A stretch of DNA of 64,000 bases from Salinispira pacifica. Its GTDB lineage: Bacteria > Spirochaetota > Spirochaetia > DSM-27196 > Salinispiraceae. Below, piece by piece: positions 5,073 to 55,812 of this stretch. The stretch's first letter is position 1, and each line of letters opens with the position of its first letter. The translations under genes were made by a program, and so were the position numbers. The stretch spans positions 2,335,570 through 2,399,569 of the forward strand of contig NC_023035.1 of assembly GCF_000507245.1 (NCBI RefSeq), read 5' to 3'. Below the pieces are notes generated by a model. It was not told where the DNA came from and did not search any database. It saw nothing but the letters and a program-made list of their open reading frames with translations.

Positions 5073-6194
5073 ATGGCAACTATGTTACTTGCACCCGTGG
5101 CCATCGGCGCAGTGAGCGCCTTTCTGGGTGCGCTGATTTCCATCACCGATAAGATCGTTAACAACTACGGTGAAGTGCAGATCGACATCAACAACGGAAA
5201 AAAAGATGTGGAGGTAAAGGGCGGAAGTCCTCTGCTTCTCAGCCTGGCGGAACAGGATATATTCGTACCCTCCGCCTGCGGAGGCCGGGGAAGCTGCGGA
5301 GCCTGTAAGGTGAAGGTCACCAGCGATGTGGGCCCCCACCTTCCCACGGAAACCCCCTACCTCACCAAGGAAGAAATTGCGGATAATGTACGCCTCTCCT
5401 GCCAGGTAAAGGTAAAACAGGATCTCTCCATTGAGATCCCCGAAAGCCTCTTCAACATTAAAAAGGTGAAGACCACAATTGAGAAGATTACCGATGTCAC
5501 CCATGACATTAAGGAAGTGCTGGTAAAACTCCCCGAAGGAACGGATCTTCAATACGAGGCCGGACAATACGGTCAGTTTGAGGCTCCCAAATACGGAAAG
5601 GTAAAAGAAGCCACTCAGCGGGCATATTCCTTTTCCTCGGACCCACAGGATAAAGAACATCTTGAGTTTCTTATCCGTCTGGTGCCCGGCGGTATTGTCA
5701 CAACCTATGTGCATGAATACCTGAAAGAGGGTGACAGCATCAATATTGTAGCCCCTGTGGGGGACTTCAAGGTGCAGAAAACCGATGCTCCCATGATCTG
5801 TGTTGCCGGCGGTTCGGGAATGGCGCCTTTCAAGTCCATTTTCAACCAGATGATCCATGACGGCAGCATAGAAACTCGGGAAGTGTGGTACTTCTTCGGA
5901 GCCAGAACCACCAAGGATATTTTTTACATGGACTGGCTCAAGGAACTGGAAGAGAAGTATCCCAAGTTTCACTTCATTCCCGCCCTCTCCGAACCTCAGG
6001 AGGGTGACGGTTGGACCGGGGAAACCGGCCTGATTACCGACGTGATGGATAAATACCTGAAGTCCGATGAACTGAAGGATGCCGAAAAAGAAGGGTATTT
6101 ATGCGGAAGTCCCGGCATGCTTGATGCCTGTATGGTGGTTATGCGGGATAACGACATGCAGGAAGAGCGCATATATTTCGATAAATTCGCATAA
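5073..6194 (+). CDS. nqrF: Na+-NQR subunit F (2Fe-2S ferredoxin plus FAD/NADH-binding reductase)
   Basis: 373 aa. N-terminal TM helix, 2Fe-2S ferredoxin motif CGGRGSCGACKV, then the FNR-like FAD/NAD module (RAYSFSS..., ...GGSGMAPF...). NqrF is diagnostic of Nqr rather than Rnf. Confidence 0.85.
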   Translation: MATMLLAPVAIGAVSAFLGALISITDKIVNNYGEVQIDINNGKKDVEVKGGSPLLLSLAEQDIFVPSACGGRGSCGACKVKVTSDVGPHLPTETPYLTKEEIADNVRLSCQVKVKQDLSIEIPESLFNIKKVKTTIEKITDVTHDIKEVLVKLPEGTDLQYEAGQYGQFEAPKYGKVKEATQRAYSFSSDPQDKEHLEFLIRLVPGGIVTTYVHEYLKEGDSINIVAPVGDFKVQKTDAPMICVAGGSGMAPFKSIFNQMIHDGSIETREVWYFFGARTTKDIFYMDWLKELEEKYPKFHFIPALSEPQEGDGWTGETGLITDVMDKYLKSDELKDAEKEGYLCGSPGMLDACMVVMRDNDMQEERIYFDKFA

Positions 6195-6205
6195 TGTACC
6201 ATTAC

Positions 6206-6234
6206 GGCCGCCGGGAGTTCACTTTCCGGCGGCC
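6206..6234 (+). terminator. Stem-loop terminator after nqrF
   Basis: 9-bp perfect inverted repeat ggccgccgg / ccggcggcc with an 11-nt loop, immediately after the nqrF stop and followed by tgttct. Confidence 0.5.
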
Positions 6235-6257
6235 TGTTCTATAAGGAGCAGACAACC

Positions 6258-6710
6258 ATGAAACAAACACCAGATTACAGCAAAGCCGAAGCGAACATGC
6301 AGTCCGGAGTGATCACCGCCGACGGGTTCCTGGGCGAGGACACCAGGCCTCTGGCGGACATCATCGAACACGATGAAGAGCTGTTTGCTGAACTGAATAT
6401 CACCTTTGATTCAGTTGCTGAGAAGCTGGAATACCTGATGAAAAAGGGACAGACCGGTCTGGGCGAGCCCATTACCGTGGATGACACCTGGCTGGTCCGT
6501 ACTGATGAAACCAGGGGCTATCTTCCTTCCCCATTCGGAGACGGAGTGTTTCACAAAATCAACGTGGAAGTAGAGCTCAAGGGAAGCGGCAAGACGCTGC
6601 TTTTCACCGAGATGAACATCCATATGCTGAGGAAATTTCATTTTCTTGAGGGCAAGGGTTCAACCTTCAGAATGGAGCCTGCCCTCATTAAAGAGGTACT
6701 GATTCTCTGA
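6258..6710 (+). CDS. Hypothetical soluble protein (150 aa)
   Basis: Clean ORF with an AAGGAG RBS 8 nt upstream. It has no TM segments and I recognise no family. It sits between the nqr operon and the degraded ABC permease genes. Confidence 0.5.
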   Translation: MKQTPDYSKAEANMQSGVITADGFLGEDTRPLADIIEHDEELFAELNITFDSVAEKLEYLMKKGQTGLGEPITVDDTWLVRTDETRGYLPSPFGDGVFHKINVEVELKGSGKTLLFTEMNIHMLRKFHFLEGKGSTFRMEPALIKEVLIL

Positions 6711-6726
6711 TTTTTTCTGATATTAT

Positions 6727-7940
6727 TTGACAAATTCTCTTCTCCGGTTCACCATGTGGCCCTGCTGTACCAGGCGTTTTCATAGGGAATATACACTTTT
6801 GAACCGCCCCGGCCATCACATGCCTGACCGGAGACATGAAGTGAATAAGATATCAGCGCTGCCGGGCAATGTACTGGTAATTCTTTTTTCCGGCATTGCC
6901 GTTTCCGCCTTCCTTGCAGTTCTTATAACTGTGATCTATCGGATCTCCGCCGGTTTAGCCGGCGGCACCGTCGACTCTTCAAAAAAACCTCCCAGAGGTC
7001 CGATTCTGCGCCGATTGCACGGAAGCACAAAGACCGGAACTGTCCACAAACATCCCATTGTACCCGCTCTTATCATCGTTCCCATCCTCGCCCTGGGAGT
7101 GACCATGGGTTTCCCCTGGTGTATACGGTGGTTCTCAGTTTCGGCAATATGAATCTGTTCCATTTTCGAAATCCCGACTTATCCCTGAGCCTCTTCATGG
7201 AAAATATGATCGGCGTGTTCACCGGCCCCATCCTCCGGCGTGACGGACTGTGGATAATACTGGCCCGAACCCTGTTGTGGACGGGAATCCAGACCTTCTT
7301 CCAGGTGCTGCTGGGGATGATACTGGCTCTCAGCCTGAATGCACCCATCCGCTTCGCCCGCTTCTTCAAGTGGATGCAGGTTCTGCCCTGGGCCATTCCC
7401 GGCACCATCTCTCTGATGACTCTTCGCTATGAATTTCATCCCAGCTTCGGTTTCATAAATCAGGTTCTTGAGCTTCTCCCGGGTGTTGCCACAGGTCCTG
7501 CGTGGTGGAGCGATCCGTTCTGGAACTTCGTCTCCATGAATCTGGTGAATCTGTGGCTTGGAGTCCCTTTTATGATGATACTCCTTCTTGGGGCGCTGCA
7601 GGGCGTGGACCGAAACTGCCTTGAAGCAGCTGAACTGGACGGTGCAAGCCGTATGCGCAGGCTGTTTTCAGTGACCCTGCCCCTGATACTGCCCACGGTA
7701 CTCCCGGCGGTGCTTTTTTCCGCCATCTACAGCTTCAATAATTTCGGGGTGCCCTACTTCATGAACCCCCAGGAGCTGGAAAACAGCCATCTGCTGTCCC
7801 TTGCCATCTTCCGGGCCGCCAGCTATTTCAACCGCTACAGCTTTTCCTCGGCACTGGCCATTGTGAACACTCTTCTGGTACTTCTGATGGTGATAATTCC
7901 CATCCGCTACAGCGGACTTCTCCAGGAGGCCAAACGATGA
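6727..7940 (+). pseudogene. MalF/UgpA-like sugar ABC transporter permease interrupted by a -1 frameshift at a poly-C tract near 7113-7116
   Basis: Frame 1 (6727..7152) supplies the TM1 segment ...PALIIVPILALGVTMGFP. Frame 3 (7119..7940) continues LVYTVVLSFGN... through the EAA loop motif EAAELDGASRMRRLF. Adding one C to the run ttcccctgg would restore GFPLVYTVVLSF in one frame. The true N-terminus is unclear. Confidence 0.5.
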
Positions 7941-39803: not shown

Positions 39804-42734
39804 CTATTTCTGCTGGGGCCGGAGGATTCCGTCCCAGGGTTCGGGTTCACGTCCACGCTTGCGGGCTTCTTCCCGCTCGATGTGGTACCGGTCGATACAG
39901 GAAATAAACAGATCCGCAATTGCACGGTTGAATGGATCCTCCCTGATGGTCATGAACAGATCGTAGGCGGTCTGCATATTTCCTGCTTCAAAAGCTGCGA
40001 CCCCATCATTCAGAATCTGCTTGTTTCGAAGCTTGGCCTCAATCTCCTCCTCGGGCAGACCATTGAGAATCTCGTATACGCTCCGGGCCTGCTGCCTGCC
40101 CACCACCTGTATCCGTCCCATGTAGCGCTTCAGGTATTCATCGGCGGTGCTCATCGCCTCAAGGGCGTCGCTGCTGACGATGATGGAAGCGCCCATCTGC
40201 TTGGAGAGGGTCTCCAGTCTGGCGGCGAGGTTCACCGAGTCGGAGATCACCGTCCCCTGCATTCGATTCTCATCCCCCAGAATACCCAGCATCAGATCGC
40301 CGGTATGAATGCCTGCTCCCACCCGGATCTCCGGCTGCCCCTGTTCACGCTGTTCCCTGTTGTAACCGTTCAGCCGGGTAATCATGGCCACCGCCGCCTG
40401 CACTGCGTCATCGGCGCTGTCGGGAAAGAGAGCCATTATAGCGTCTCCGATATATTTATCGATAAAACCCCGTCGTTCCCGGATGACCGGCCCCACCATG
40501 CTCAGATAGGCGTTGAGAAAGTTGAAATTTTCATCCGGACTCATGCTCTCGGAGATGGCCGTAAAGCGCCTGATATCAGAGAACATGATCGTCATGGTTT
40601 TCTGCACCTGGTCTCCCAGCTTCACTTCCGTAAGATCGCTGAGATCCAGATATTTCAGAAACTGGTCGGGAAAGAACCGGCGGTAGCTCTCGTTCATATT
40701 TTCTATCTGCTGAAGATAGGTGTTGATGGAACGGCTCATGAAATTAAACCGCTTGCCCAGGTCGCTCACCTCATCGTTGCTTGTGAGCCGGATCTGGTAA
40801 TCCCAGTCCCCTTCGGCAATCCGCTCAACCCCGTTGCGTAAAATCCGCAGACTCCGGAGAATCATCACCGTCATGATCATAATAAAAACCACAATCAGGG
40901 CGGCAATCAGGGTCATCACCATCATGGTCCTGGAATAGAGCTCCCTGGCATTCTCATTAAAACTGTATAAGTCGCTGCCGATCTCCAGAAGAGCCACCAC
41001 CTGATTGCTGGAATCGTAGATCGGGCCCACGCCGTACAGCCAGTTGCCGCTGATATCCTGTACCTGTTCGAACACCACATCCCCTTCATTGGCTTTCCGG
41101 TACACGCTCTGGGGATCCTCATACCAGTTGAAGGGATGACGGAGGCCGATACGGTTATTCAGATACATAAACCCGTACAGGTTCTCATCCACAACCTGAT
41201 ACAGGGCGAAATACAGCCCTTCGTTCCAACTGTCCAGGTTGTAATTCAAGGCTTGCCGGAGATCGTTGCGTATCTGCTGATATTCTGCATTCATGTAATC
41301 ATCCATCCCGCGTATTTCATGGAACAGATCCCCGTCCACGCTTTGTCCGATGGTCTGGGTAAGAGCCAGAATTGTATCGATATTATTCTGCTCATAGGAA
41401 TCGATGAAGCTGCTTAAAAGAATGGTGGAAATGAGGAAAATTCCCCCGGCCATCAGCGGTACGATGATCAACAACTGCTTGAATACCAGAGATATCCGCC
41501 TCTTGAGAATATAAATATAGGTGTGAACCACCAGCGCCGCCAGGGCCAATCCTCCTGCAATGAGTCCCGTCCACCAGAGAAACGCCCTGACCCGCCACAT
41601 GGGCGGGATGTGATACTTTTCACTGTGTGTAATCCGGGAGTTGGCATCTCCCCCGTAGACCCCGTAATCATAGGTTGTGAGAAATCCGTTGGGGGAATAC
41701 CCCACCCGGTAATAGATAAACGGTTCATCCGAGTATCCCTTTCGGGACAGCAGCTCCCGATCCAGAACACTGCGGTATTCAACGGTGAAATTTGAGGAGT
41801 TCAGGAAGGAAATCAGGGGGATGGCTGCAATACGACGGTTGACCAGATCACTGACATACAGCCAGTCATCTCCGCCGATGGTCATATCCCAGAAATACTC
41901 GTCCGGAAGCCCGGGATCGTAAAAATAGCCGGCACCGCTATTCTGACTGGACGGGAATGACTCATCTTCCTCATCATCCGCCCGGACAGGTCCGGCGATA
42001 TCCACCCGGGACATTTCAGAGTAAATATCTCCGAGAATCATATGTCCCCGCTTATCCAGAATGATGTAATTCTCACCATCCACCCACTCAATATCCGCCA
42101 CATAGGCATTGGCGTCGGGAAAATAGCTTTCGCCGAGAATTTCCGTGGTTTCCCGTTCAAGAGATTTCCGGATGAACTGGATACCCGTATCCTGTACCAG
42201 AAAAAAATAGAGATAGCCCCGTTGAATCCGGGGACTGAAAATTTCTCCTCTCTGAATATACTCGGCCTTTTTCTCATCATACCTGCGCTGATACAGAATT
42301 CTGCGAAAATCGCCGTTCACCCCGTACTCCAGGATTTCCTCCCGCTGGATGAAGGTTCCTTTGTCATCCAGCACATAGTTGAGAATAAAAAAACTGTCTT
42401 CTTCTCCGGGAAGCACCAGGTCGGCATAGAAAAACCGTCCCTCTCTTCTGTCCCCTCCCCGGATTTCGGAGATCAACTCTCCTTCCTGGTCCGCCACAAG
42501 AATTCTTCTCAGGCTGGTGTCTATGACAATCGTTCTGTTCTGATCATCCTCCACGGCAAACTGGGGGAAATCCAGGACCGCATGACTCTGGAAAGGGTTT
42601 CTGTCACGCTCAGCAAAACCCGCCAGGATCAGAATAAGACTCACTCCCAGAACTCCCGATGCCACGGGAAGAATGCTTCTTCCAAGCTTCTGTATCCACG
42701 TCCGTTTATGATTATCAGTGCTTCGGCTGCTCAT
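39804..42734 (-). CDS. Membrane sensor adenylate/guanylate cyclase (class III): TM, NHL-repeat-like periplasmic domain, 2 TM, Cache-like periplasmic domain, TM, HAMP, cyclase
   Basis: 976 aa. HAMP (...RSLRILRNGVERIAEGDWDYQIRLTSNDEVSDLGKRFNFMSRSIN...). Class III cyclase core (TIMFSDIRRFTAISE...FIDKYIGDAIMALF...VGAGIHTGDLMLGILGDENRMQGTVISDSVNLAARLE). The periplasmic domains are paralogous to those of the adjacent gene. Confidence 0.8.
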   Translation of the reverse strand: MSSRSTDNHKRTWIQKLGRSILPVASGVLGVSLILILAGFAERDRNPFQSHAVLDFPQFAVEDDQNRTIVIDTSLRRILVADQEGELISEIRGGDRREGRFFYADLVLPGEEDSFFILNYVLDDKGTFIQREEILEYGVNGDFRRILYQRRYDEKKAEYIQRGEIFSPRIQRGYLYFFLVQDTGIQFIRKSLERETTEILGESYFPDANAYVADIEWVDGENYIILDKRGHMILGDIYSEMSRVDIAGPVRADDEEDESFPSSQNSGAGYFYDPGLPDEYFWDMTIGGDDWLYVSDLVNRRIAAIPLISFLNSSNFTVEYRSVLDRELLSRKGYSDEPFIYYRVGYSPNGFLTTYDYGVYGGDANSRITHSEKYHIPPMWRVRAFLWWTGLIAGGLALAALVVHTYIYILKRRISLVFKQLLIIVPLMAGGIFLISTILLSSFIDSYEQNNIDTILALTQTIGQSVDGDLFHEIRGMDDYMNAEYQQIRNDLRQALNYNLDSWNEGLYFALYQVVDENLYGFMYLNNRIGLRHPFNWYEDPQSVYRKANEGDVVFEQVQDISGNWLYGVGPIYDSSNQVVALLEIGSDLYSFNENARELYSRTMMVMTLIAALIVVFIMIMTVMILRSLRILRNGVERIAEGDWDYQIRLTSNDEVSDLGKRFNFMSRSINTYLQQIENMNESYRRFFPDQFLKYLDLSDLTEVKLGDQVQKTMTIMFSDIRRFTAISESMSPDENFNFLNAYLSMVGPVIRERRGFIDKYIGDAIMALFPDSADDAVQAAVAMITRLNGYNREQREQGQPEIRVGAGIHTGDLMLGILGDENRMQGTVISDSVNLAARLETLSKQMGASIIVSSDALEAMSTADEYLKRYMGRIQVVGRQQARSVYEILNGLPEEEIEAKLRNKQILNDGVAAFEAGNMQTAYDLFMTIREDPFNRAIADLFISCIDRYHIEREEARKRGREPEPWDGILRPQQK

Positions 42735-42756: not shown

Positions 42757-45700
42757 TCAATCTGCCTTACGAATGAATACATACGGGATTGCAATCACTG
42801 CGATGGCAATTCCCAGAAGGATCAGTCCCTGTCTCTGACCCAGAACCAGGACGGCGGCAAAAACCACCGGTCCAATGGTTTCGCCCAGCTTCCCCATCAG
42901 TTCGAAATATCCCGTGGCCCTGTCCTGTCCCACCACATGAACAATTTTCTGGGAGAAATAGAGTCCGTTCTGGCTGCTTACCGCAAATCCCTCGGTGAGC
43001 CCCATGAGAATCAGAACCAGTGCAGCGGACCAGATATTGCCGCTGAGACCCGCCAGAATTAACGCCGCACCCCACATCAGCGAACCCAGCAGGCTTCCCC
43101 AGAAGCTGCCCAGATGTTTTTCCACCAATCGGCTGAGGGGCGGACCCAGGTAGACAATAAAGAGCCCGTTCACAATGAGGAACCTGCCGATTTCCGGTGT
43201 GCTCAGTCCCCTGGCTTCGGCAAAGAGAGGGAAGTAAAAGCTCACGTATGCCGCTGCCACATAGGTGGGAAGAATCAGAAGGACAAAGTACATCCACAGC
43301 CGGGGACTGTGGATCATGGTAAGCAATGCCCTGCCATGTCCCAGTTCGCCCCGGGTATCCTGTTCCCAGAAAAACCGTGTATCCCGGTACAGGAATGCAA
43401 AAAGGATTCCGGTCATGCCGGTAAGGGCCATTCCCATGAGAAAAACATTCCGGTACCCCACCAATCCGGCAAGAGAGGCTCCAAGCACCAGTCCCACGTT
43501 TATTCCTGCTATCATGCCCGAATAAAAGTTGGAGTACGCCTGATTTCTGAGTTTTTCCCGTCCCTCTTTGTTGATGAAACTGCGAAGGGCAATATAGCCC
43601 ATACCGGTACCCAGACCCGTAAGAGACCGGGCCAAAAGAAAAGCCGGAAGAGATCCTGCCAGAGCGGAAAGCAGAAGCCCCAGAGCGCTGATAACCAGAC
43701 TTACTGCGAACACTCCCTTCCATCCCCTGTGGGCAATCAAAATGGAAGTCAAAACCGTGGCAATCCCGAAAAAGGCCATCTCAAGTGAAAGGGGCAGCGC
43801 AATTACCACATCCCTGCTCAATCCGGCCAGGGGCTGGTAGAGATCCCTGCTCAGCAAAGGCAGAAAGGCTATGGAGAAACTCACCGCAGTAAAGTAGAGA
43901 AACACCAGGGGTCGTGCAAGATTCCCGTCACTGAACCCTTCATCCCGGCTGCTCAACGGCGGAGTTGCCAGCCGGCGTTCTTTCAGCAGGGAGCTGAGAA
44001 CGGTGAGCTCTATCATCAACAGAATAAGAACAATGAGAACGGTAACCAGCTCCCAGATCAGCTCCCGGATGAGTACACGGTTTTCCTGGTTCATGGTGTA
44101 CAGATCTGTTCCCGTTTCGAAAAGAGCAACCACTTCGCCACGGCTGTTATAGATGGGTCCCACACCGTAGATCCAATCACCTGATATATCGGTATCCATC
44201 TCTGTTGCAATTCTTCCGTCCAGGGCGAGATCGTACACCCCGGGGTTTTCATCTCCCCCCAGCCAGTCGAAGGGATGATACATGGAAATGCCTCCATTCA
44301 TGTACATGAATCCGTAGAGCCGGTCATCGATTATCCGGTAGAGAGCAAAATAATATCCCTTGTTCCACTCGTCCCGGTTATTGTTGAACGCATCAATGAA
44401 GGTATTTCGAATCTCCATATACTCTTCATTCCCGAAATCCTCCTGGGATTCAATTTCACTGAAAGAATCACCGTCAATCACCAGGGGGAGCACCTGTATC
44501 ATCTGGGAAATTCTTTGAAAGATAATGCCGGTGTAGCGGTTGTTGAAATTGTTGATGAGAAGGAACGTACTCAGTGCTCCGACGGCAACGACCAGCAGGA
44601 CTACAGCCATGGAACGCACGAGAACAGGCGGGAGATTACCTTCAAAAATCCGTGAATATATGATCCACAGAAGCAAAACAGCCCCGGAGACGGTCAGGAT
44701 TACCCCGACCCACCACAGAATTCGTCCCAGAGTTCTGCCGGGTCCCAGCCTGGCGGAGGTGACAAAGCTGATATCACCTTGATCGTATATCACTATTCCT
44801 TCATCATTGGTTGTGTAAATCCTGCCATCCGGGGAAATATCCAGTCGGTAGTAATTGTACGGGTATAAATCCTCCAGGTTCATGGATGCCATGATCTGTT
44901 CCCTGCCGATGAGGGTTTCGCCTGAAACATTCCGAATTTCCTTATGCTCCAGGTCTACGAACACAATATCTCCGCCGGCGCTGCCCAGCTCCCATGGAAC
45001 AACCCCCGGAGGATTCTCGGAAGTTCCATTAAAGAGAATCCGGTTTTCCCCTGCTGCAGAAAGCCGGCGGATAGTTCCGTCCCTGAATGTTGCCACGGCA
45101 CCGGAAACGCTGTGTACTGCATCGGCAATATAGAGCATTGCCTGATCCACCTGAATGGGTTCAGCCTTCTGAATACGGTGAGGCACTGATCGGGATACTG
45201 CTGATTCTGCCTGTTCCTCTGTCTTTTGGGCTACCCGTTCCTCTGTATTTTCCGACGGGCCGTTCCCGTCGGGGAGAGAATATGTGATGGTTACCGGGGT
45301 AAGGGCATCCTCTTCAAGAATAAAAAAGCGGAGCATTCCCGGTTCCACAGCATTCAGTCCAAGAATTCTGTTCCGCTGTACAAGGGTGGGGTCGTTGTGT
45401 CCCGGAGGATATTCCCGTTCATACACCACCGAAAGCAGCTTTCCCCGGGGGCTGTAGAGCAAAATTCGTTCTCTGAGAACATAAAACCCTTTGGCATCCC
45501 GGGTTTCATCCAGGAGAAAAAGATACCCTTCCGGAGTCACACTGATCTGATTGGCATAAAAGAATCTGTTATCTTCCCGGGAACCCCCGTCAAGGCGGTA
45601 GACCAATTCCCCGTTCCCGGAGATTTTCGATACCCGTCTCAGGGATGTATCAATTACATAGTGATTACCGACGCTGTCTCCGGTGGCAAAGACCGGATAA

Positions 45701-45819
45701 TCAAATTCATAGCTGCTTCTGAGAGGATTTTCGAAACGGGAACCGCTTTCCAGAAAGAGAAGTCCGATTCCAGAGATAATCAGAACAACGGGTATAAGCC
45801 AGATATATCCTTTTTTCAT
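42757..45819 (-). CDS. Fusion protein: the same dual periplasmic sensor module (NHL-like plus Cache-like on 4 TM helices) fused to a C-terminal 12-TM MFS transporter domain
   Basis: 1020 aa from ATG 45819 (GGAG RBS). N-terminal 620 aa align with the cyclase N-terminus (VIDTSLRRV; GGSREDNRFFYA; DEWNKGYYFALYRIIDDRLYGFMYMNGGISMYHPFDW versus DSWNEGLYFALYQVVDENLYGFMYLNNRIGLRHPFNW). The C-terminal 400 aa is MFS-like (...LARSLTGLGTGMGY..., 12 hydrophobic helices). The ORF track extends to 45876. Confidence 0.65.
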   Translation of the reverse strand: MKKGYIWLIPVVLIISGIGLLFLESGSRFENPLRSSYEFDYPVFATGDSVGNHYVIDTSLRRVSKISGNGELVYRLDGGSREDNRFFYANQISVTPEGYLFLLDETRDAKGFYVLRERILLYSPRGKLLSVVYEREYPPGHNDPTLVQRNRILGLNAVEPGMLRFFILEEDALTPVTITYSLPDGNGPSENTEERVAQKTEEQAESAVSRSVPHRIQKAEPIQVDQAMLYIADAVHSVSGAVATFRDGTIRRLSAAGENRILFNGTSENPPGVVPWELGSAGGDIVFVDLEHKEIRNVSGETLIGREQIMASMNLEDLYPYNYYRLDISPDGRIYTTNDEGIVIYDQGDISFVTSARLGPGRTLGRILWWVGVILTVSGAVLLLWIIYSRIFEGNLPPVLVRSMAVVLLVVAVGALSTFLLINNFNNRYTGIIFQRISQMIQVLPLVIDGDSFSEIESQEDFGNEEYMEIRNTFIDAFNNNRDEWNKGYYFALYRIIDDRLYGFMYMNGGISMYHPFDWLGGDENPGVYDLALDGRIATEMDTDISGDWIYGVGPIYNSRGEVVALFETGTDLYTMNQENRVLIRELIWELVTVLIVLILLMIELTVLSSLLKERRLATPPLSSRDEGFSDGNLARPLVFLYFTAVSFSIAFLPLLSRDLYQPLAGLSRDVVIALPLSLEMAFFGIATVLTSILIAHRGWKGVFAVSLVISALGLLLSALAGSLPAFLLARSLTGLGTGMGYIALRSFINKEGREKLRNQAYSNFYSGMIAGINVGLVLGASLAGLVGYRNVFLMGMALTGMTGILFAFLYRDTRFFWEQDTRGELGHGRALLTMIHSPRLWMYFVLLILPTYVAAAYVSFYFPLFAEARGLSTPEIGRFLIVNGLFIVYLGPPLSRLVEKHLGSFWGSLLGSLMWGAALILAGLSGNIWSAALVLILMGLTEGFAVSSQNGLYFSQKIVHVVGQDRATGYFELMGKLGETIGPVVFAAVLVLGQRQGLILLGIAIAVIAIPYVFIRKAD

Positions 45820-45944
45820 GCAAAACTCCGGTATATTTGTTTTCACCCCGCCGCACCCGGCAGGGCTGCAGTGCATACCTACATTCTATGAGTCCCCGGG
45901 AAGGATTGCCAATACCAGGTGAAAAGAGGTAGATTCCACAAAGT

Positions 45945-47726: not shown

Positions 47727-48663
47727 GCTGCTCTTTGTTTCCGTACAGCTGTGTAAGAAGGTCGTTCTCTGAACTATAGCCGTCTATAAATCTGCCTCTG
47801 GCCGATGGAAGAATGCTTTCAACGGGCAACAGAATGGCAGTTTCAAATACCGAACCGAAATGCCCGTTTTCAGCCGTGCCGAAAGACTCAATTTCCCGGC
47901 TTACTCCCAGATAGGATTTCATGAGAGGGGGCACAGGATGTCCGGCTTCAGTCATTTCCCGGGAGAAGCGCTGAAAAGCTTCATCTGAAGAGATCGTTTC
48001 GGGGTAATCCCGGAAATATTCAGCATCCTCATCCACGGCATGCTCTTTCACAGGACAGATAATGCTTCGATCTCCGGGATAATACCGGCTCCAGAAGCCG
48101 AACAGACGCTTTCGAAGCTCCTGCGGCACCCGGGGATAGACGGTCAGTTTTCCGAAGAACCACTTCAGCCCGGGAATCTCGTTGATTAATGCCCCCAGAC
48201 CGGACCACACCGCAAATAATCCCATAACCCGCCTGCGGGCCTTCCGGTTCACCACTGAGCGGCCCAGTTCGACAGTACCCCGGGAATACCCATCCATGAA
48301 GCGAGGGGAGAACCGAAATAGTCTGCCAGCCGGGGTTGAGCCCTTGAGCAGCCCGGGAGAAATCATTCCGTGGTGAATGTACCGGTAACAGGATACGATT
48401 TCCCTCCACTGCGGGTCATAGGCTATCAGCTGATAACAGTGTTCCCCGGTATCGAAGGAATCGATATCTTCACTTTTTCCGCTGCCTCCACCTTCCCGAC
48501 GGAACTCCTGTTCCCGGATGCGGCCGATCTCCTTCATGCAGTTCGGCGACGTTGTTCCATGGAGGTGATGTATTTCAAGATCACGGAACCTGGTCAGCAA
48601 ACTGTGACTTCCCAGTTCCCCGGCGAATCCGGTATCGTCTCTATCAGATACTTGTACATGCAT
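47716..48663 (-). CDS. OlsB-like GNAT N-acyltransferase (N-acyl amino acid / lyso-aminolipid synthase, hemolysin-like family)
   Basis: ...IGRIREQEFRREGGGSGKSEDIDSFDTGEHCYQLIAYD...RGTVELGRSVVNRKARRRV... parallels OlsB (RLRYEVF...DLDAFDAHCDHLLV...LELGRSCVHRDHR). C-terminal PLMKSYL-type region. The start is uncertain; the ORF track extends to 48744. Confidence 0.55.
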   Translation of the reverse strand: MHVQVSDRDDTGFAGELGSHSLLTRFRDLEIHHLHGTTSPNCMKEIGRIREQEFRREGGGSGKSEDIDSFDTGEHCYQLIAYDPQWREIVSCYRYIHHGMISPGLLKGSTPAGRLFRFSPRFMDGYSRGTVELGRSVVNRKARRRVMGLFAVWSGLGALINEIPGLKWFFGKLTVYPRVPQELRKRLFGFWSRYYPGDRSIICPVKEHAVDEDAEYFRDYPETISSDEAFQRFSREMTEAGHPVPPLMKSYLGVSREIESFGTAENGHFGSVFETAILLPVESILPSARGRFIDGYSSENDLLTQLYGNKEQLKT

Positions 48664-48765
48664 GTTTTTATCATACTCCCCGGGCCCGTGTATTGCAAGT
48701 TTGTTGACAGCATTCGAAAATCCGGAATAGTATTCAAATACCACAAATTTTTACGAGGAGACACA

Positions 48766-49305
48766 ATGAAGAAATTTGTGTTAATCATGATCATTTCCAT
48801 GATTGCAATCTCAGGCATCAGTGCGGAAGCTGATCTGATTGTTAAGCCGTTTGCGGGCATCAGCCTTGGATCGGAAGACGCCCTCCGGGGCGGCGGCGTA
48901 CACGTTCAGTACAATGTACTGGGCACCGGGATACATCTGGGTACCTGGGCGGCGGTGAACTACGACATCTGGTATTCCAATGCATCACTGCCTGTGGCGC
49001 TGACACTTGGAAAAGATTTCTACATTCTCGCAGGTACCACCTTCGATCTCAGTACGGCCACAAACCCTGCAACTCTCACCGCCACAGCTCCTGCGGGTTT
49101 CTTCAATACCTTCGGACTGGGCTTCAACACGGTACTGATTCCTTTCAGTGATTCGATGATCCTCGGTGCGAACGCCGAACTGGTGTATACCAACTATGTG
49201 GCTGAATCCACCGGAGATGATTTGGGAGATGCATTCGGAGCCCTTGCCGGACTGATCGCAAATATCAAGCTTTTTGCTTCTATAAACCTGGCCTTTCTTT
49301 TCTAG
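48766..49305 (+). CDS. Small (179-aa) putative 8-strand outer-membrane beta-barrel protein (OmpW/OmpX-like)
   Basis: ATG at 48766 with an AGGAG RBS. Signal peptide MKKFVLIMIISMIAISGISAEA. Gly/aromatic alternating pattern and the C-terminal ...INLAFLF* (terminal Phe). The ORF track extends upstream to 48370 without support. Confidence 0.5.
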   Translation: MKKFVLIMIISMIAISGISAEADLIVKPFAGISLGSEDALRGGGVHVQYNVLGTGIHLGTWAAVNYDIWYSNASLPVALTLGKDFYILAGTTFDLSTATNPATLTATAPAGFFNTFGLGFNTVLIPFSDSMILGANAELVYTNYVAESTGDDLGDAFGALAGLIANIKLFASINLAFLF

Positions 49306-49516: not shown

Positions 49517-52233
49517 TCAGGAATTCTTCACGAAGTTCCGAAGTACCGTGTGAAGGATTCCGCCGTTCCTGAAATATTCCACTTCAACGGAGCTGTCAAT
49601 CCGGCAGGTTACGGTGAACTCTTTTTTGTCACCGGAGGGATCCACCGCTGTAACGGTAATATCCTGCTTGGGCGTAACCGAGTCATCCACATGAATGCTG
49701 AATTGTTCATTCCCGCTCAGTCCCAGGCTTTCGGCATTTTCGCCCTTTTTGTACATAAGGGGAAGAACTCCCATGCCGATCAGGTTGCTTCGGTGGATAC
49801 GCTCAAAGCTTTCGGCTATTACCGCCTTGACGCCCAGAAGGTACACGCCTTTTGCAGCCCAGTCACGGCTGGAACCCATTCCGTAATCCTTACCGGCCAG
49901 AACAATGCTCGGCGTGGCTTCTTCCTTATACCTGCGGCTCGCCTCAAAAATGCTCACCTGCTCACCGCTGGGAAAGTGGGTGGTCCAGCTGCCCTCGGTT
50001 CCCGGAGCGAGCTGGTTTCTCAGGCGGATATTTGCAAAAGTACCCCGGGTCATTACCCGGTCATTGCCCCGGCGGCTTCCGTAGGAATTAAAATCAAAAT
50101 ACCCCACGCCCTGTCCTTTTAGATATTTTCCCGCCGGACTTGCAGGATCAATCACCCCTGCAGGGGAAATATGGTCAGTGGTGACCGAATCCCCCACCTT
50201 CACCAGAACTCGTGCATCTTCAACCGGCTGAATTGGACTCACTTCAGTGCTCATATCCACAAAGAACGGAGGTTCCTGAATGTAGGTGGACTCTTCCTTC
50301 CAGTCATACACCTCCGATGAGCTGAGTTCAATTGCATTCCACTGGGGGTTGCTGGTTTCGATGCCTCCATAGCTTTCCTGGAAGGATTTCCTGTCCATGG
50401 CCTTTGCCACATATTCGTCGATTTCCTCTTTGGAAGGCCAGATATCCTTCAGATACACCGGCTTACCGTCTTTTCCCGTACCCAGGGGCTGACTGTCCAG
50501 ATTTACATTCATGTTCCCGGCAATGGCATAGGCCACACAGAGAGGGGGGATGCCAGGAAGTTGGCCCGGGTATCCGGGTTCACCCGGCCTTCGAAATTCC
50601 GGTTTCCCGAAAGAACGGCCGCAGCAACCAGATTGTTTTCCTGAATGGTTTTACTGATCTCTTCATTCAGCGGTCCTGAGTTTCCGATACAAGTTGTACA
50701 GCCGTAACCCACAAGATGAAAGCCCAGCTGTTCGAGATACGGCATAAGTCCTGCGGTTTTCAAATATTCGGTTACCACAACGGATCCCGGAGCGAAGCTG
50801 GTCTTCACAAAGGGCTTTGAGCTGAGCCCCGCCTCAACGGCTTTTTTGGCCAGCAGACCGGCCCCCATGAGCACCGACGGATTGGAGGTGTTGGTACAGC
50901 TCGTAATTGAGGCGATCACCACATCTCCATGGGTGAGCTCAACTTCCTCCCCTCCCTCAAGGGTCACTTTGGCAGTGGTTTCCGCCGCATCGCTGCTCTC
51001 TTCAAAACCGCCATCCTTAATGGGAGCGGTCATGAGACGTTTAAACTCCGGTGCCACCGATTTCAGTTCGATTCGGTCCTGGGGTCGTTTCGGGCCTGCG
51101 ATTGCCGGAACGATGCTTCCAAGATCCAGCTCAAGAACGGCTTCATAGTCTCTTGCATCATCCTCGCTGTCGCCATCTTCACGGTACACACCCTGAGCTC
51201 TGGTATAACTCTTTGCCAGATCCATGAGGTCTTCATCCCGGCCTGTTGAATACATATACTCCAGGGTCTTGGCATCCACCGGAAAAAATCCCGCGGTGGC
51301 GCCGTACTCGGGGGCCATATTCGCCAGAGTGGCTCTGTCCGGTACCGAAAGCACATCCAGACCGGGTCCGAAGTATTCCACTATCTTTCCTACAACGCCG
51401 TGGGCCCGGAGAAGTTCGGTAACCCTGAGAACCAGGTCGGTGGCGGTTGTGCCTGCAGGAAGGTCTCCGGTCAATTTCACTCCCACCACAGGAGGTGCCA
51501 GCATGTAGATGGGCTGTCCCAGCATGGCGGCTTCGGCCTCGATTCCGCCCACACCCCAGCCCAGAATTCCCAGACCGTTGATCATGGTTGTGTGACTGTC
51601 GGTACCCACCAGGGTATCGAAATAGGCAAAATTTTCTCCGCCGTCCTCTTTGTGCTGAACTACTTTTCCCAGATACTCAAGGTTTACCTGATGACATATT
51701 CCGCTAGCGGGGGGGACAACATGAAAGTTCTCCAGGGCTCCCTGACCCCACCTGAGAAATTCATAGCGCTCCTTGTTTCTCTCGAATTCCCGTTCGGCAT
51801 TTTTCCTGAAGGCATCGGGATGGGCGTAAAAATCGATGCTTACCGAATGGTCAATAACCAGATTCACCGGCAGTTGGGGATTAATCCGACCGGGATCACC
51901 GCCCATTCTCGCCATTGCGGAACGCAGCGCAGCCAGATCCACAACACAGGGCACACCGGTGAAATCCTGAAGAAGAACCCGGGCAGGGGTATAGGGTATT
52001 TCCACATCACCGGGCTTTTTCGGATCGTAGTTCAGGAATGATTTCAGATGATCGCTTGTAACTTCTTTTTCATTGATATTCCGCAGAACAGATTCCAGAA
52101 GGACCTTTATGCTGTAGGGGAAACGGGAAATCTGAGGGTATTTCTTTGCAAGTTCAGTAAGGGAAAAATATGAAAACTGTTTCCCCCCGGCACTCAGACT
52201 CTGCTTTACACCAAATGCATCAGAATAGGGCAT
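49517..52233 (-). CDS. acnA: Aconitate hydratase A, split into two ORFs by a -1 frameshift in a G6 tract at 50544-50549 (plus strand; C6 on the coding strand)
   Basis: N-terminal ORF 50509..52266 (...[22 protein letters not shown]...; real start MPYSDAFG at 52233 with an AGGAG RBS) ends ...[18 protein letters not shown]. The C-terminal ORF 49517..50536 begins (GTG)[12 protein letters not shown]... Adding one C restores [14 protein letters not shown], the conserved aconitase segment. Confidence 0.85.
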
Positions 52234-52314
52234 GAATTCTCCTTTAAAATAATCACCGGATAGCACCGGTGAGATGGTTTGAAAAAAAATAATTAAAACA
52301 CTCGGGTATAATCC

Positions 52315-52555: not shown

Positions 52556-52611
52556 AAGCGTAGAGCCCGATCTCGGACGGTTCCGACGGGTACCAGCGGG
52601 GAGGTTATTCT

Positions 52612-55600
52612 ATGAATTATATCACTGTCTTGTTTCACCGCTTTCTGCGGCAAAAAATCGGAGGACCCCATCATAGAGGCGGGCGGGCGCTTTTTATTCT
52701 CACAGCCCTGCTTCTCCTGGTGCCCTGCATGTACGTGAATGCCGATTTGTATTCCGGTCCTACGGATCTGCTCCAGCTGGAAACCCGACATTTTCTCTTT
52801 ATATACCCCCCGGAATCTGCAGAAGCCGCTGAATATCTTGCAGGACTGGCTGACGGCATGTATGAATGGGTTGCCGATGAGCTGAATACTGATACCTGGT
52901 TTACACGTTTTCCTGTGGTCATCACCCCTGACACGGACCTGTTGAACGGAGCCTTCACAGTATTTCCTTCCCAGAGAATCAGACTCTTTCAGGCACCTAT
53001 ATCCCCCTCCACCGGTTTTGCCCGGTATAACGATCCCCTGGCAAAACTGTTCCTGCATGAACTGACCCATGCGGTTTCCCTTACCCTGAGATCCCCGTTT
53101 TTCCGGGCAGGGCGTTTTCTTTTGGGTGATGTTGTGGCTCCGGCCTTTTTCTCCGCCCCTCCGTTTTTTGTTGAAGGGGTAACCGTGGCAGCCGAAAGTG
53201 CCGACAGCTTCGGAAGGGCACATGACACCCCCTACGCCTCAGTAATCCAGCAGGATATTCTTGAAAACCGGATGATGAGTCCCATGGAAAGCAACGGCAT
53301 CCGGGGAGCGTACCCTTCCGGCGCATGGTATATCTATGGAGGCTGGTTTTCCAGGTATCTTATTGAAACCTACGGAACGGATGCCTACGCAGAATTCTGG
53401 AGTCTGCTTGGTACAGGTCAGCTCTACCAGGACGGTCTGTTTACCCGGGGAGCGTTCAGCAAGGCATTCGGAGAGTCCATCCAAAACGTCTGGGATGATT
53501 TCCGCTCCTGGATCTCAATACAAGCACCGGTTGAGTTCAACAGCCGGGTGCTGGATCCCCGGTATCAGTTTATCGGGGCAGCTGCCTCACACCCCGGCGG
53601 AATCCTGTATTCCACCAGCGATAGCGTGTATCACCTGGAATGGGAGAATGAAACCGTCATGGAAGAAGACTCCCCGTCCCCGGCTTCTTTCAGCACCGCA
53701 CCCCTCTTCCCGTCGGATAATTTCACCAACCGCATTGCCGTTCATGGCAATGAAATTCTGATCAGCACCTACCGGAGGGATTCGGAGGGGCAGTTCCACG
53801 CCAGAATCAAATCCTATGATCTTGACAGCGGCCGGCCTCAGCCCGGGCCTCTGTTTCCCGGTGAGAAAGATACTTCTCTCACTGAGGCTGTGAGGGATCC
53901 CCGGACCGGAACCATTCTGGCCATTCGGCCCCGGGGGTACTCGGGAGATCTGGTGCAGGTGAACACGGACGGCAGTATCCGGGTACTTCTGGAAGGAAAT
54001 CCAGGTCTTATCCCTTCCATGCCGGTCGTCCTGGGAGACAGGGTGTATTTCCTGCTGCAGCAGCGGGGGAAAAACCGCATCGCCCGGTTTTCACAGAACG
54101 GGAATATCGAACTGATGGAGCCCCGGGTCCCTCTCCGGGGAATCCGGAACATATCAGGAGACGGCTCCTCGCTGTACTTTATCTATGATAATGATTTCAG
54201 TCTCTTCAAACTGGGGGTTTTCACCCCCGGCGCTCCACTTCTGGTGCAGGAGCAGAGCATCAGCGGCGGAGTACAGCACCCGGTGGGAGTGGACGGTGAC
54301 AGGGTTGCATACATCGGGAATTTCAGCCGGGGCCAGCGCGTCATGCTTCATCCGGCCAGGGTGAAAGAGCCGGCCAGGGTGAAAGAGCCGGCCAGAGAGC
54401 CGGCCGAAGAAACCACCGAAGAAACCACCGAAGAAACCACCGAAGAAACCACCGAAGAAACCACCGGAGAAACCTACAGAGAGCCGGGGCGTCAGCCTGA
54501 ACCCTGGCAAAGCCGTCCGACATTGCCATCGCAAAGCCGTCAGCAGGGGCAGCTGGAAGAAATTGATTATAGCTGGGCAGCCCTGGATGTTCTCCGGGAC
54601 GGCGGCAGCAGCGGCAGCGGCAGCGGACAAGGGACGGAGAGATCCCGGGGATACGGAGGAATCCGGGTGCCCATGCCCGGGGAGCAACCTTCCGAGTTTC
54701 GCCCCGAACCATATGCAGCCCTGCCCTGGATTCTCACCCCCCGGCTGCGCTATCCCCTTGTCACCGTCAACCCACGGGTGTTGGGCGGAGCCGAAGAATC
54801 TGCCCTGATCACCGGAGCAGGCGCAGGGTTCAGCACAGAGGACCCCACAGCCGCCTACAGTCTTACGGCCAATCTGCAATACCTGTACGATCAGCCCTTC
54901 CTCCACGCAGATGTTCAGCTGGGAGTCCGCACCCTTCCGGTGGCTTTCGGTCTGGGATTCCGGGATTGGAGAGTCTATAATCCGATAATAAACGGCGAGT
55001 TTCGGGGAGACAGCCGGGTGCTGTCCGCCTCCCTGTCTGCATCCCAGTCAATCAGCCTTTATCCTCTCTGGCGAAACATCAGCTGGCAGCTGCAGGCAGA
55101 ATTTGTACAGCAGTTCGATGAAGATCCGGATGAGGAAGCAGGCCCCTACGGCTGGGACGCTGCAGGATGGCGGGTTCCCATCACCGCCGCCCTGGGCTTC
55201 AGCTCCGTCAGGGATAATCCCCTGGATCATCGGGGATCTGCGGGAATACGCAGCCGTCTTTCCGGTGTGGGTCTTTTCTCCCAGGCCGGGGATGTACCGT
55301 TCACAGGATATGCCGGCTTGAAACTTGAAGGAGAAACTCCCTGGATGTACGGCAGACTCCGTCTCTTTTCCGCCATCTCACTCCAGCAGTCAACCGGGGT
55401 CAGTCCGGCGGGAGCTATCATTCCCGGTGTGAGTACCGGGTCTTTCAACACCGACTATGTTGTCCACCCGGGTTTCTCTGCAGAGGCGGAAACCGGCGGA
55501 ACCGTGTATTCCTTCGGGGAAATCCGCATCGGGCAGAAATATGACATTCACAGGGGAATACTCAGCCTGGCCTATCTGCAGAAACTGAAAATCAGAGGGG

Positions 55601-55812
55601 GGCACAGAATATCCGTGCAGGATAACCTTCTCCTGGAAGAGGGGGTGATCAACCAGTCCAGCTTCATTGCACCCAGCATGGAGTTTGTGATCAATGGAGG
55701 AGCCCTGGCCCGGACGGCATGGGAGGTTGGAGCCGAGTTCAATTACCTCTATGGAGGGGGTGGGAATCCCTGGTATATCTCCCTCTTTTTGACCCCTCCG
55801 GGAGGTTTTTAG
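52612..55812 (+). CDS. Large secreted multidomain protein: N-terminal HExxH (zinc metallopeptidase-like) region, beta-propeller-like middle, tandem peptide repeats, probable C-terminal outer-membrane beta-barrel
   Basis: Signal peptide ...ALFILTALLLLVPCMYVNA. HELTH motif (LAKLFLHELTHAVSLT). TolB/PD40-like repeats (DGSIRVLLEGNPG, DGDRVAYIGNF). Repeats PARVKE x2 and EETT x5, and a (GS)n linker. The last 350 aa have amphipathic beta pattern ending ...WYISLFLTPPGGF* (terminal Phe). Confidence 0.55.
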   Translation: MNYITVLFHRFLRQKIGGPHHRGGRALFILTALLLLVPCMYVNADLYSGPTDLLQLETRHFLFIYPPESAEAAEYLAGLADGMYEWVADELNTDTWFTRFPVVITPDTDLLNGAFTVFPSQRIRLFQAPISPSTGFARYNDPLAKLFLHELTHAVSLTLRSPFFRAGRFLLGDVVAPAFFSAPPFFVEGVTVAAESADSFGRAHDTPYASVIQQDILENRMMSPMESNGIRGAYPSGAWYIYGGWFSRYLIETYGTDAYAEFWSLLGTGQLYQDGLFTRGAFSKAFGESIQNVWDDFRSWISIQAPVEFNSRVLDPRYQFIGAAASHPGGILYSTSDSVYHLEWENETVMEEDSPSPASFSTAPLFPSDNFTNRIAVHGNEILISTYRRDSEGQFHARIKSYDLDSGRPQPGPLFPGEKDTSLTEAVRDPRTGTILAIRPRGYSGDLVQVNTDGSIRVLLEGNPGLIPSMPVVLGDRVYFLLQQRGKNRIARFSQNGNIELMEPRVPLRGIRNISGDGSSLYFIYDNDFSLFKLGVFTPGAPLLVQEQSISGGVQHPVGVDGDRVAYIGNFSRGQRVMLHPARVKEPARVKEPAREPAEETTEETTEETTEETTEETTGETYREPGRQPEPWQSRPTLPSQSRQQGQLEEIDYSWAALDVLRDGGSSGSGSGQGTERSRGYGGIRVPMPGEQPSEFRPEPYAALPWILTPRLRYPLVTVNPRVLGGAEESALITGAGAGFSTEDPTAAYSLTANLQYLYDQPFLHADVQLGVRTLPVAFGLGFRDWRVYNPIINGEFRGDSRVLSASLSASQSISLYPLWRNISWQLQAEFVQQFDEDPDEEAGPYGWDAAGWRVPITAALGFSSVRDNPLDHRGSAGIRSRLSGVGLFSQAGDVPFTGYAGLKLEGETPWMYGRLRLFSAISLQQSTGVSPAGAIIPGVSTGSFNTDYVVHPGFSAEAETGGTVYSFGEIRIGQKYDIHRGILSLAYLQKLKIRGGHRISVQDNLLLEEGVINQSSFIAPSMEFVINGGALARTAWEVGAEFNYLYGGGGNPWYISLFLTPPGGF
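54352..54474 (+). repeat. In-frame coding tandem repeats: 18-bp unit x2 (PARVKE) plus 12-bp unit gaagaaaccacc x5 (EETT)
   Basis: Seen directly; perfect copies. Inside the large protein gene. Confidence 0.85.

Follow-up and report, generated by a model that had tools for sequence, protein, structure and literature searches.

A near-universal spirochaete protein predicted to join a zinc peptidase and a TolB-like propeller to a diverged Omp85-like barrel

What kind of protein is encoded by a solitary gene of the spirochaete Salinispira pacifica whose product, 1066 amino acids (aa) long, carries the annotation 'hypothetical' throughout its family? The gene lies in a stretch of 64,000 nucleotides (contig NC_023035.1, positions 2,335,570 to 2,399,569 of the forward strand; assembly GCF_000507245.1), hereafter the window, where it stands alone between an aconitase gene, transcribed away from it, and a cysK-like gene that points toward it. 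The original prediction, made from the letters of the DNA, had described a secreted protein with an HExxH motif, a TolB/PD40-like middle with beta-propeller-like repeats, in-frame tandem repeats and a probable C-terminal outer-membrane beta-barrel preceded by neither POTRA domains nor a passenger beta-helix, and had recognised no characterised homologue. All of these elements were recovered in our analysis (Table 1), and we too found no characterised homologue. We suggest, from sequence comparison, that the protein belongs to a very divergent spirochaete branch of an architecture that combines Peptidase_MA_2, PD40 and Omp85 domains. This architecture is not unprecedented, since proteins of the WD40(-peptidase)-Omp85 type have already been catalogued (PMC4104836, PMC11358297). 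The class is so far known from computer surveys only and has never been studied experimentally.

The gene is real, conserved and near-universal in Spirochaetota. Searching with the single protein in Pfam, NCBIfam and PDB sequences gave nothing useful: the sole match, to CT47, was a low-complexity similarity to the EETT repeats and was discarded, and the Pfam models for Peptidase_MA_2, PD40 and Omp85 gave no match above threshold. The exact protein is absent from the sequence collections searched, the nearest relative on record being 68% identical to it. A word-indexed search returned 75 full-length relatives (900–1060 aa), all labelled 'hypothetical' and none with a precomputed Pfam domain, and an exhaustive search of representatives yielded 1,934 clusters (at 50% identity) with E ≤ 1e-3, or 956 with E ≤ 1e-10. 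GTDB species genomes contained 290 relatives; among the 80 matches listed, nearly all were from Spirochaetota, including Salinispira, Treponema, Treponemataceae, Brevinematales, Gracilinema and Rectinemataceae, and the best was a Salinispira protein with 51% identity. One further match, L054 (positions 6001–6936 of PHBR01000023.1, 40% identity to residues 10–307), comes from the bin Chloroflexi bacterium HGW-Chloroflexi-9 and lies about 175 bases from the end of its contig; the contig may be a spirochaete one placed in the wrong bin, or the family may occasionally occur outside the phylum.

The surroundings of the gene vary. Four annotated gene contexts of family members had nothing in common, and clustering of the open reading frames (ORFs) around 83 family loci revealed synteny only within sub-clades. 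A divergent upstream gene of 930–1130 aa resembling TP_0593 accompanies 24 of these loci (for instance L082 2923–5724 and L027 2353–5751, both on the minus strand; the L082 copy is recorded as PF27485 TP_0593_N), and a RadC-DinG-like helicase gene follows downstream in 17; neither gene occurs in our window. The family is near-universal and vertical in Spirochaetota and is tied to neither mobile elements nor a conserved operon, which suggests a housekeeping role. In the literature found, no paper describes the spirochaete family, and a 2026 structural survey of the Treponema pallidum proteome does not mention such a propeller or Omp85 protein.

Structure modelling had been proposed with the original prediction as a check. 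Using the family alignment (73 sequences) as input, AlphaFold2 produced a confident model (pLDDT 87.2, pTM 0.88) in which peptidase fold, propeller and barrel are all present: an alpha/beta domain at residues 46–305, a propeller at 306–580, a mostly disordered region at 590–700 and sixteen long strands at 712–1061. Confidence drops below pLDDT 50 at residues 595–634 and 666–677, and a confidently modelled, conserved hairpin around W655 (residues 648–663) interrupts the disordered linker. Between residues 590 and 700 the model contains neither a beta-alpha-alpha-beta-beta unit of the POTRA type nor a beta-helix passenger. At the N-terminus, where pLDDT is about 50, the hydropathy maximum (residues 26–44) is the sole strongly hydrophobic stretch of the protein and ends in VNA↓DL, a probable signal peptidase I site. 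An N-terminal signal peptide is found in all 73 family members, mostly with an A-x-A↓DL site. We also considered a lipoprotein anchored at Cys39 and rejected it, because this cysteine is not conserved among family members and the A-x-A↓DL sites are.

The alpha/beta domain has the features of a clan MA(E) peptidase, namely an HExxH motif with conserved His, Glu and His in a thermolysin-like catalytic fold. At least 90% of the 73 homologues share each of the residues H149, E150, H153, E188 and E195, and all of them have G189; in a second set of 80 sequences, H149, E150 and H153 are conserved at the same level. We predict from this pattern that H149 and H153 are zinc ligands and E150 the general or catalytic base; by analogy with the M1 and MA families, in which this role falls to a Glu on the next helix downstream, E188 is probably the third zinc ligand. 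An HExxH motif with a downstream EG motif is shared with M30 (hyicolysin and lugdulysin), M1, M9 gluzincins and PF13485 (Peptidase_MA_2). Members of M1, however, carry GxMEN, the exopeptidase motif of that family, and space HExxH and Glu by 18 residues (HExxH-x18-E), whereas here GxMEN is absent from the whole 1066-aa sequence and 35 residues separate H153 from E188. The nearest peptidase folds are M30 lugdulysin and the M9 collagenases. Because GxMEN is lacking and these nearest folds are endopeptidases, the enzyme is expected to be an endopeptidase as well. Pallilysin is a small protein that is not known to be related to ours. We therefore set aside a reading as a pallilysin-type treponemal HEXXH protease (PMC3406077).

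The middle domain matches TolB and tricorn protease in both profile and structure comparisons, and the family profile searched against the PDB matched propellers only. By sequence PD40 is barely detectable, in 2 of 40 members at E around 1e-3. The likeness to TolB is confined to the propeller: the N-terminal alpha/beta domain with which TolB binds TolA is missing here, and TolB is encoded in the tol-pal operon, whereas the neighbours of our gene are the aconitase gene and cysK, with no Tol-Pal context.

The identity of the whole assembly came from distant relatives. A profile search revealed three outside the spirochaetes, two matching Peptidase_MA_2 and PD40 and the third PD40 only. The protein P0214, from a Krumholzibacteria genome, has the sequences GIRGYTYY and VFFEAANAW near its C-terminus; these are the classical Omp85 motifs of L6 and strand 13, as in BamA and FhaC. 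With P0214 as query, 930 relatives were returned, for which the source labels given were Krumholzibacteria, Latescibacteria and Chitinivibrionia; many of them carry the label 'Tol biopolymer transport system component'. In an alignment of 32 members of this sister family (A4), Peptidase_MA_2 (PF13485) and PD40 (PF07676) were detected in all 32 and Omp85 (PF01103) in 24, with a best E of 5.6e-11. When the spirochaete alignment (A1) was compared with A4 by hhalign, 627 columns matched with a probability of 99.9 and an E of 1.4e-35. The match starts at the first peptidase beta-strand, continues across propeller and linker to the shared PY..L..P motif and enters the first two strands of the barrel, but does not extend into the rest of the barrel. 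In this match HELTH falls opposite the HExxH that is invariant in the sister family, E188-G189 opposite its invariant E184-G185 (WFAEG), and the pre-barrel motif opposite PYKW.YT.FQFYPR. No spirochaete member (0 of 40) matches PF13485 directly at E ≤ 0.1, and the homology to Peptidase_MA_2 is only transitive, via the sister family.

POTRA domains are typical of the Omp85/TpsB superfamily, but they are missing in its noNterm, WD40 and Metallo subfamilies. When Heinz & Lithgow (2014; PMC4104836) split this superfamily into ten subfamilies, they defined one, WD40-Omp85, in which a TolB-like propeller replaces POTRA; it reminded them of a fusion of BamA with BamB, and they reported no experiments on the class. 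A 2024 paper describes a WD40-Omp85 class with 'divergent WD40 and peptidase domains' (PMC11358297). Our protein has the features of this class: a TolB-like propeller lies N-terminal to the barrel, POTRA is absent, and there is homology to Omp85-positive proteins of the same architecture. The Peptidase_MA_2 + PD40 + Omp85 proteins of Krumholzibacteria, Latescibacteria and Chitinivibrionia fit as present-day examples of WD40-Omp85, an equation that we draw by matching architecture. They share with the spirochaete proteins a length of about 1,000 aa and the order signal peptide, MA peptidase with HExxH...EG, TolB-like propeller, unstructured linker, PY..P motif and 16-strand barrel, again with no POTRA. 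They differ in that their domains are detectable by Pfam, whereas the spirochaete proteins match none of the three models above threshold; moreover, P0214 has an IRGY motif in L6 and F-x-(D/E)-A-x-N-x-W in strand 13, neither of which is found in the spirochaete barrel.

Several features of the modelled barrel recall Omp85. In Foldseek searches the significant matches (E ≤ 1e-3) were Omp85 proteins only (BamA, Sam50, FhaC and Toc75), together with LptD at lower probability, and no porins were among them. As in BamA, TamA and Sam50, there are 16 strands, and the longest loop, with 41 residues (924–964), connects strands 11 and 12, the position of L6 in Omp85. Compared with those proteins, ours has no POTRA, no VRGF/Y and only 8–11% sequence identity, and its N-terminal region consists of an enzyme and a propeller instead of the chaperone-like POTRA arm. 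Just before the barrel, Y701 and P710 are conserved in at least 90% of the 73 homologues. The loops are asymmetric, with 103 residues in total on one face and 38 on the other. Amphipathic alternation along the barrel strands exceeds that of shuffled sequences but not that of the propeller strands, and because the latter alternate as much, this property does not discriminate.

The reading that we favour, with somewhat better than even confidence, is that of an outer-membrane protein in which a zinc protease, a propeller, a tether and a divergent Omp85 barrel are combined, facing the periplasm and acting in envelope processing or quality control. The protein would be exported by Sec and anchored in the outer membrane by its C-terminal barrel, a location to which the signal peptide, the C-terminal Phe and the predicted loop asymmetry point. 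Both termini of the barrel and its short turns would be directed toward the periplasm, and for this reason the peptidase-propeller module would be tethered below the outer membrane; we propose this topology because of the loop asymmetry and because the N-terminal domains of Omp85 proteins are periplasmic as a rule. Propellers in tricorn protease and prolyl oligopeptidases restrict or recruit unfolded polypeptides. The propeller here, packed beside the peptidase, would likewise gate or recruit them, and the active clan-MA zinc endopeptidase would work as an envelope protein-processing or quality-control protease, comparable in function to a fusion of the BamA/BamB/BepA type. The logic would be that of BepA and BamB, in which a zinc protease with HExxH and a beta-propeller are stationed on the periplasmic side of an Omp85 barrel. 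In Proteobacteria, however, BepA (a periplasmic quality-control protease with M48 and TPR domains, associated with the barrel assembly machinery) and BamB (a propeller lipoprotein with eight blades) are separate soluble or lipoprotein subunits, and they have no homology to our protein beyond the level of clan or fold; the analogy is functional only.

Several results weigh against this proposal. The (V/I)RG(F/Y) motif of L6 is absent from the long loop of the spirochaete proteins, whose consensus is YP...EY; none of the 40 spirochaete members matches PF01103; a barrel-only hhalign comparison with the Omp85-positive sister family was not significant (E 0.09), and cross-searches with hidden Markov models of the barrel were only marginal. 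No substrate, partner or conserved gene neighbourhood points to a pathway, and the Omp85 barrel of PlpD can export its own N-terminal enzyme domain.

The first of these results raise the question of whether the barrel is related to Omp85 at all. It might instead be a generic porin-like anchor, unrelated or convergent, the ancestral Omp85 barrel having been replaced or never present. The lack of significant barrel-to-barrel similarity and of PF01103 and VRGY would speak for such an anchor; PF03865 is likewise unmatched by the query and 40 relatives, and the (F/G)xDxG motif of strand 13 is absent from the spirochaete barrel. We nevertheless consider it quite unlikely, because the Foldseek matches are barrels of the Omp85 superfamily (with LptD lower) and not porins, because 16 strands are combined with a single very long loop exactly at the L6 position, because the hhalign match proceeds collinearly via PY..L..P into the first two barrel strands, and because the barrels of the spirochaete and sister families are similar in length (about 366 and 395 aa). 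When a collinear alignment is forced at low stringency, the spirochaete long loop falls opposite LRGYTYY of the sister family, although the motif itself is gone. Since barrel-only comparisons are not significant, membership of Omp85 rests on fold and collinearity, and a strongly diverged Omp85 barrel that has lost its signature motifs is the most economical reading.

The case of PlpD bears on the orientation of the module. The original prediction had spoken of an outer-membrane-anchored or autotransported metalloprotease: a barrel-anchored metalloprotease agrees with the interpretation favoured here, whereas autotransport in the classical sense lost its support, because the barrel is of the 16-strand Omp85/BamA-like type and not the 12-strand autotransporter type. 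A type Va autotransporter was also rejected for want of a pore helix, a beta-helix and any autotransporter Pfam match. The main rival is a type Vd-like, self-exporting surface protease, whose barrel would translocate its own peptidase-propeller module and hold it by the linker, so that it could degrade external proteins for nutrition or in interaction with a host or partner. The order of enzyme, linker and Omp85-like barrel parallels that of PlpD (PMC4104836), the long, low-complexity and fast-evolving repeat linker is typical of surface stalks under diversifying pressure, and the nearest peptidase folds, M30 lugdulysin and the M9 collagenases, are secreted endopeptidases. PlpD itself (patatin, POTRA and Omp85 barrel) also has a hydrolytic enzyme N-terminal to an Omp85-type barrel, but it is a lipase, has POTRA, and its passenger is secreted and released, whereas our protein has a metallopeptidase and a propeller and no POTRA. 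We regard self-export as unlikely: besides the absence of POTRA, the model predicts no helix or plug segment in the barrel pore; the sister family keeps the canonical BamA-type L6 and strand-13 motifs, which are features of closed barrels; TolB-like PD40 propellers are typically periplasmic in diderm bacteria; a folded module of 535 residues is much larger than the known type V passengers that pass through Omp85-type barrels; and the distribution of the family is vertical and housekeeping-like.

Conversely, the barrel could be the functional core. The protein would then be mainly an assembly or translocation factor of the Omp85 type, similar to a fusion of BamA and BamB, and its peptidase-like domain a substrate-binding element or scaffold and not a protease. 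Such a role would agree with the Omp85-like barrel and with the fusion reading of Heinz & Lithgow (PMC4104836). Against it, the set H149, E150, H153 and E188 is conserved to at least 90% in both families, which argues for retained catalysis, and canonical BamA with five POTRA domains is already present in spirochaetes (PMC11358297). Furthermore, the spirochaete barrel lacks the VRGY of L6. This motif is needed for Omp85 function, as established for BamA and FhaC. We therefore judge a non-proteolytic assembly factor very improbable. A bolder and speculative extension, which we consider unlikely, is that the family represents an unrecognised, near-universal outer-membrane machine of spirochaetes with a repurposed Omp85-derived barrel, which either exports its own 535-residue module, as a POTRA-less branch of type V secretion, or performs quality control of outer-membrane proteins (OMPs) in a single BamA/BamB/BepA-like chain. 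If true, spirochaetes, with an outer-membrane proteome that is notoriously sparse and of importance in medicine, would gain a conserved component of the surface or envelope that was not recognised before.

The tandem repeats that the original prediction had read in frame (PARVKE, EETT five times and a GS run) fall in the linker between propeller and barrel. This region spans 125 residues here as compared with about 44 in most members; it has 92 in the relative of 68% identity and 64–89 in a few other homologues. The extra length consists of lineage-specific low-complexity sequence, such as NSSQ repeats in P0001 and ILGGR repeats in P0053. In the positions equivalent to residues 575–700, P0001, P0053, P0015 and P0018 have tandem repeats of short peptides, or lengthy inserts of low complexity, of their own, unrelated to those of the query (for example NSSQNSSQNS and ILGGRILGGRILGGR). 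Because other members carry unrelated repeats there, the linker is a recurrent site of repeat expansion, and the repeats of our protein are a lineage-specific expansion of a hypervariable linker. The near-perfect identity of the repeat units at the DNA level shows a recent expansion of the slippage type in a region under little constraint. In a search for strain variants of the repeats, a 24-nucleotide pattern of the flank had no match in metagenomes; a pattern of the EETT-repeat DNA matched four contigs, all unrelated, which were set aside, and the collections contain no sequence nearly identical to this one.

Table 1. Position of the gene and its parts in the 64,000-nucleotide window (residues refer to the 1066-aa protein; TRF, Tandem Repeats Finder)
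Feature	Window positions	Strand	Basis
Whole gene, 1066 codons and stop	52612..55812	+	ATG start, ORF list
Shine-Dalgarno-like GGAGG	52600..52604	+	7 nt 5' of ATG, read from sequence
Predicted signal peptide, residues 1–44, long n-region, hydrophobic core 26–38	52612..52743	+	hydropathy, family comparison
Predicted gluzincin (clan MA) zinc-peptidase domain, residues 46–305	52747..53526	+	
HELTH motif, residues 149–153	53056..53070	+	near-invariant in 73- and 80-sequence sets
E188-G189 of FVEGVTV, probable third zinc ligand ('EG' motif)	53173..53178	+	conservation
Predicted six-bladed TolB/PD40-like beta-propeller, residues 306–580, 23 strands	53527..54351	+	
Acidic/Pro/Thr/Gly-rich, mostly disordered linker, residues 581–700	54352..54711	+	pLDDT, homologue lengths
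18-bp tandem repeat x2.4 (PARVKE PARVKE PAR)	54352..54395	+	TRF, 100% matches, score 88
12-bp tandem repeat x5.9 (EETT x5, then GETY)	54404..54474	+	TRF, 98% matches, score 135
6-bp repeat x4.5 (GSSGSGSGQ, GS run)	54600..54626	+	TRF, 85% matches, score 40
Pre-barrel motif PY-x-x-L...P..(W/R)-x-P, residues 700–715	54709..54756	+	conservation, pLDDT 86–95
Predicted 16-strand Omp85-like outer-membrane beta-barrel, residues 712–1061	54745..55794	+	
Long loop between strands 11 and 12, residues 924–964 (Omp85 L6 position)	55381..55503	+	DSSP, loop lengths
C-terminal Phe1066, aromatic OMP-type terminus	55807..55809	+	42 of 73 family members end in F/Y/W

Elsewhere in the window (1–64000), no Rfam family reached its gathering score. 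A frameshift of one nucleotide in a C6 homopolymer (50544–50549), inside the conserved FLASPPLVVAYAIAG motif, breaks the neighbouring aconitase gene (49517–52266, minus strand) into two ORFs, 585 and 339 aa long, that overlap; either the gene is a recent pseudogene or the shift is an error of sequencing or assembly. Within the ORF 48370–49305, a protein of about 188 aa (48740–49305, plus strand) starts with MKKFVLIMIISMIAISGISAEA and ends in ...INLAFLF. With its signal peptide, its C-terminal Phe and no Pfam match, this protein is a candidate for a small beta-barrel of the outer membrane. Two large ORFs on the minus strand have long unannotated N-terminal regions: one of 1039 aa (42757–45876) has an MFS transporter domain only at residues 658–973, its N-terminal 650 or so residues having no Pfam match, and a 976-aa protein with HAMP and adenylate/guanylate cyclase domains (39804–42734) begins with about 620 such residues.

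Integral proteins are scarce in the outer membranes of spirochaetes. Any further conserved barrel protein is of consequence for the study of the envelope and, where the species is a pathogen, for vaccine development. Pfam and NCBIfam do not see the present family, to which three domains and a predicted catalytic centre can now be assigned; it is also tied to an unstudied class in which a zinc protease and a TolB-like propeller are fused to an Omp85 barrel. Our comparison also suggests that a barrel of the Omp85 type can drift past sequence recognition while the remainder of the protein stays recognisable, and surveys of Omp85 diversity would therefore undercount. The spirochaete family offers a concrete system in which to ask what Omp85 proteins without POTRA domains do.

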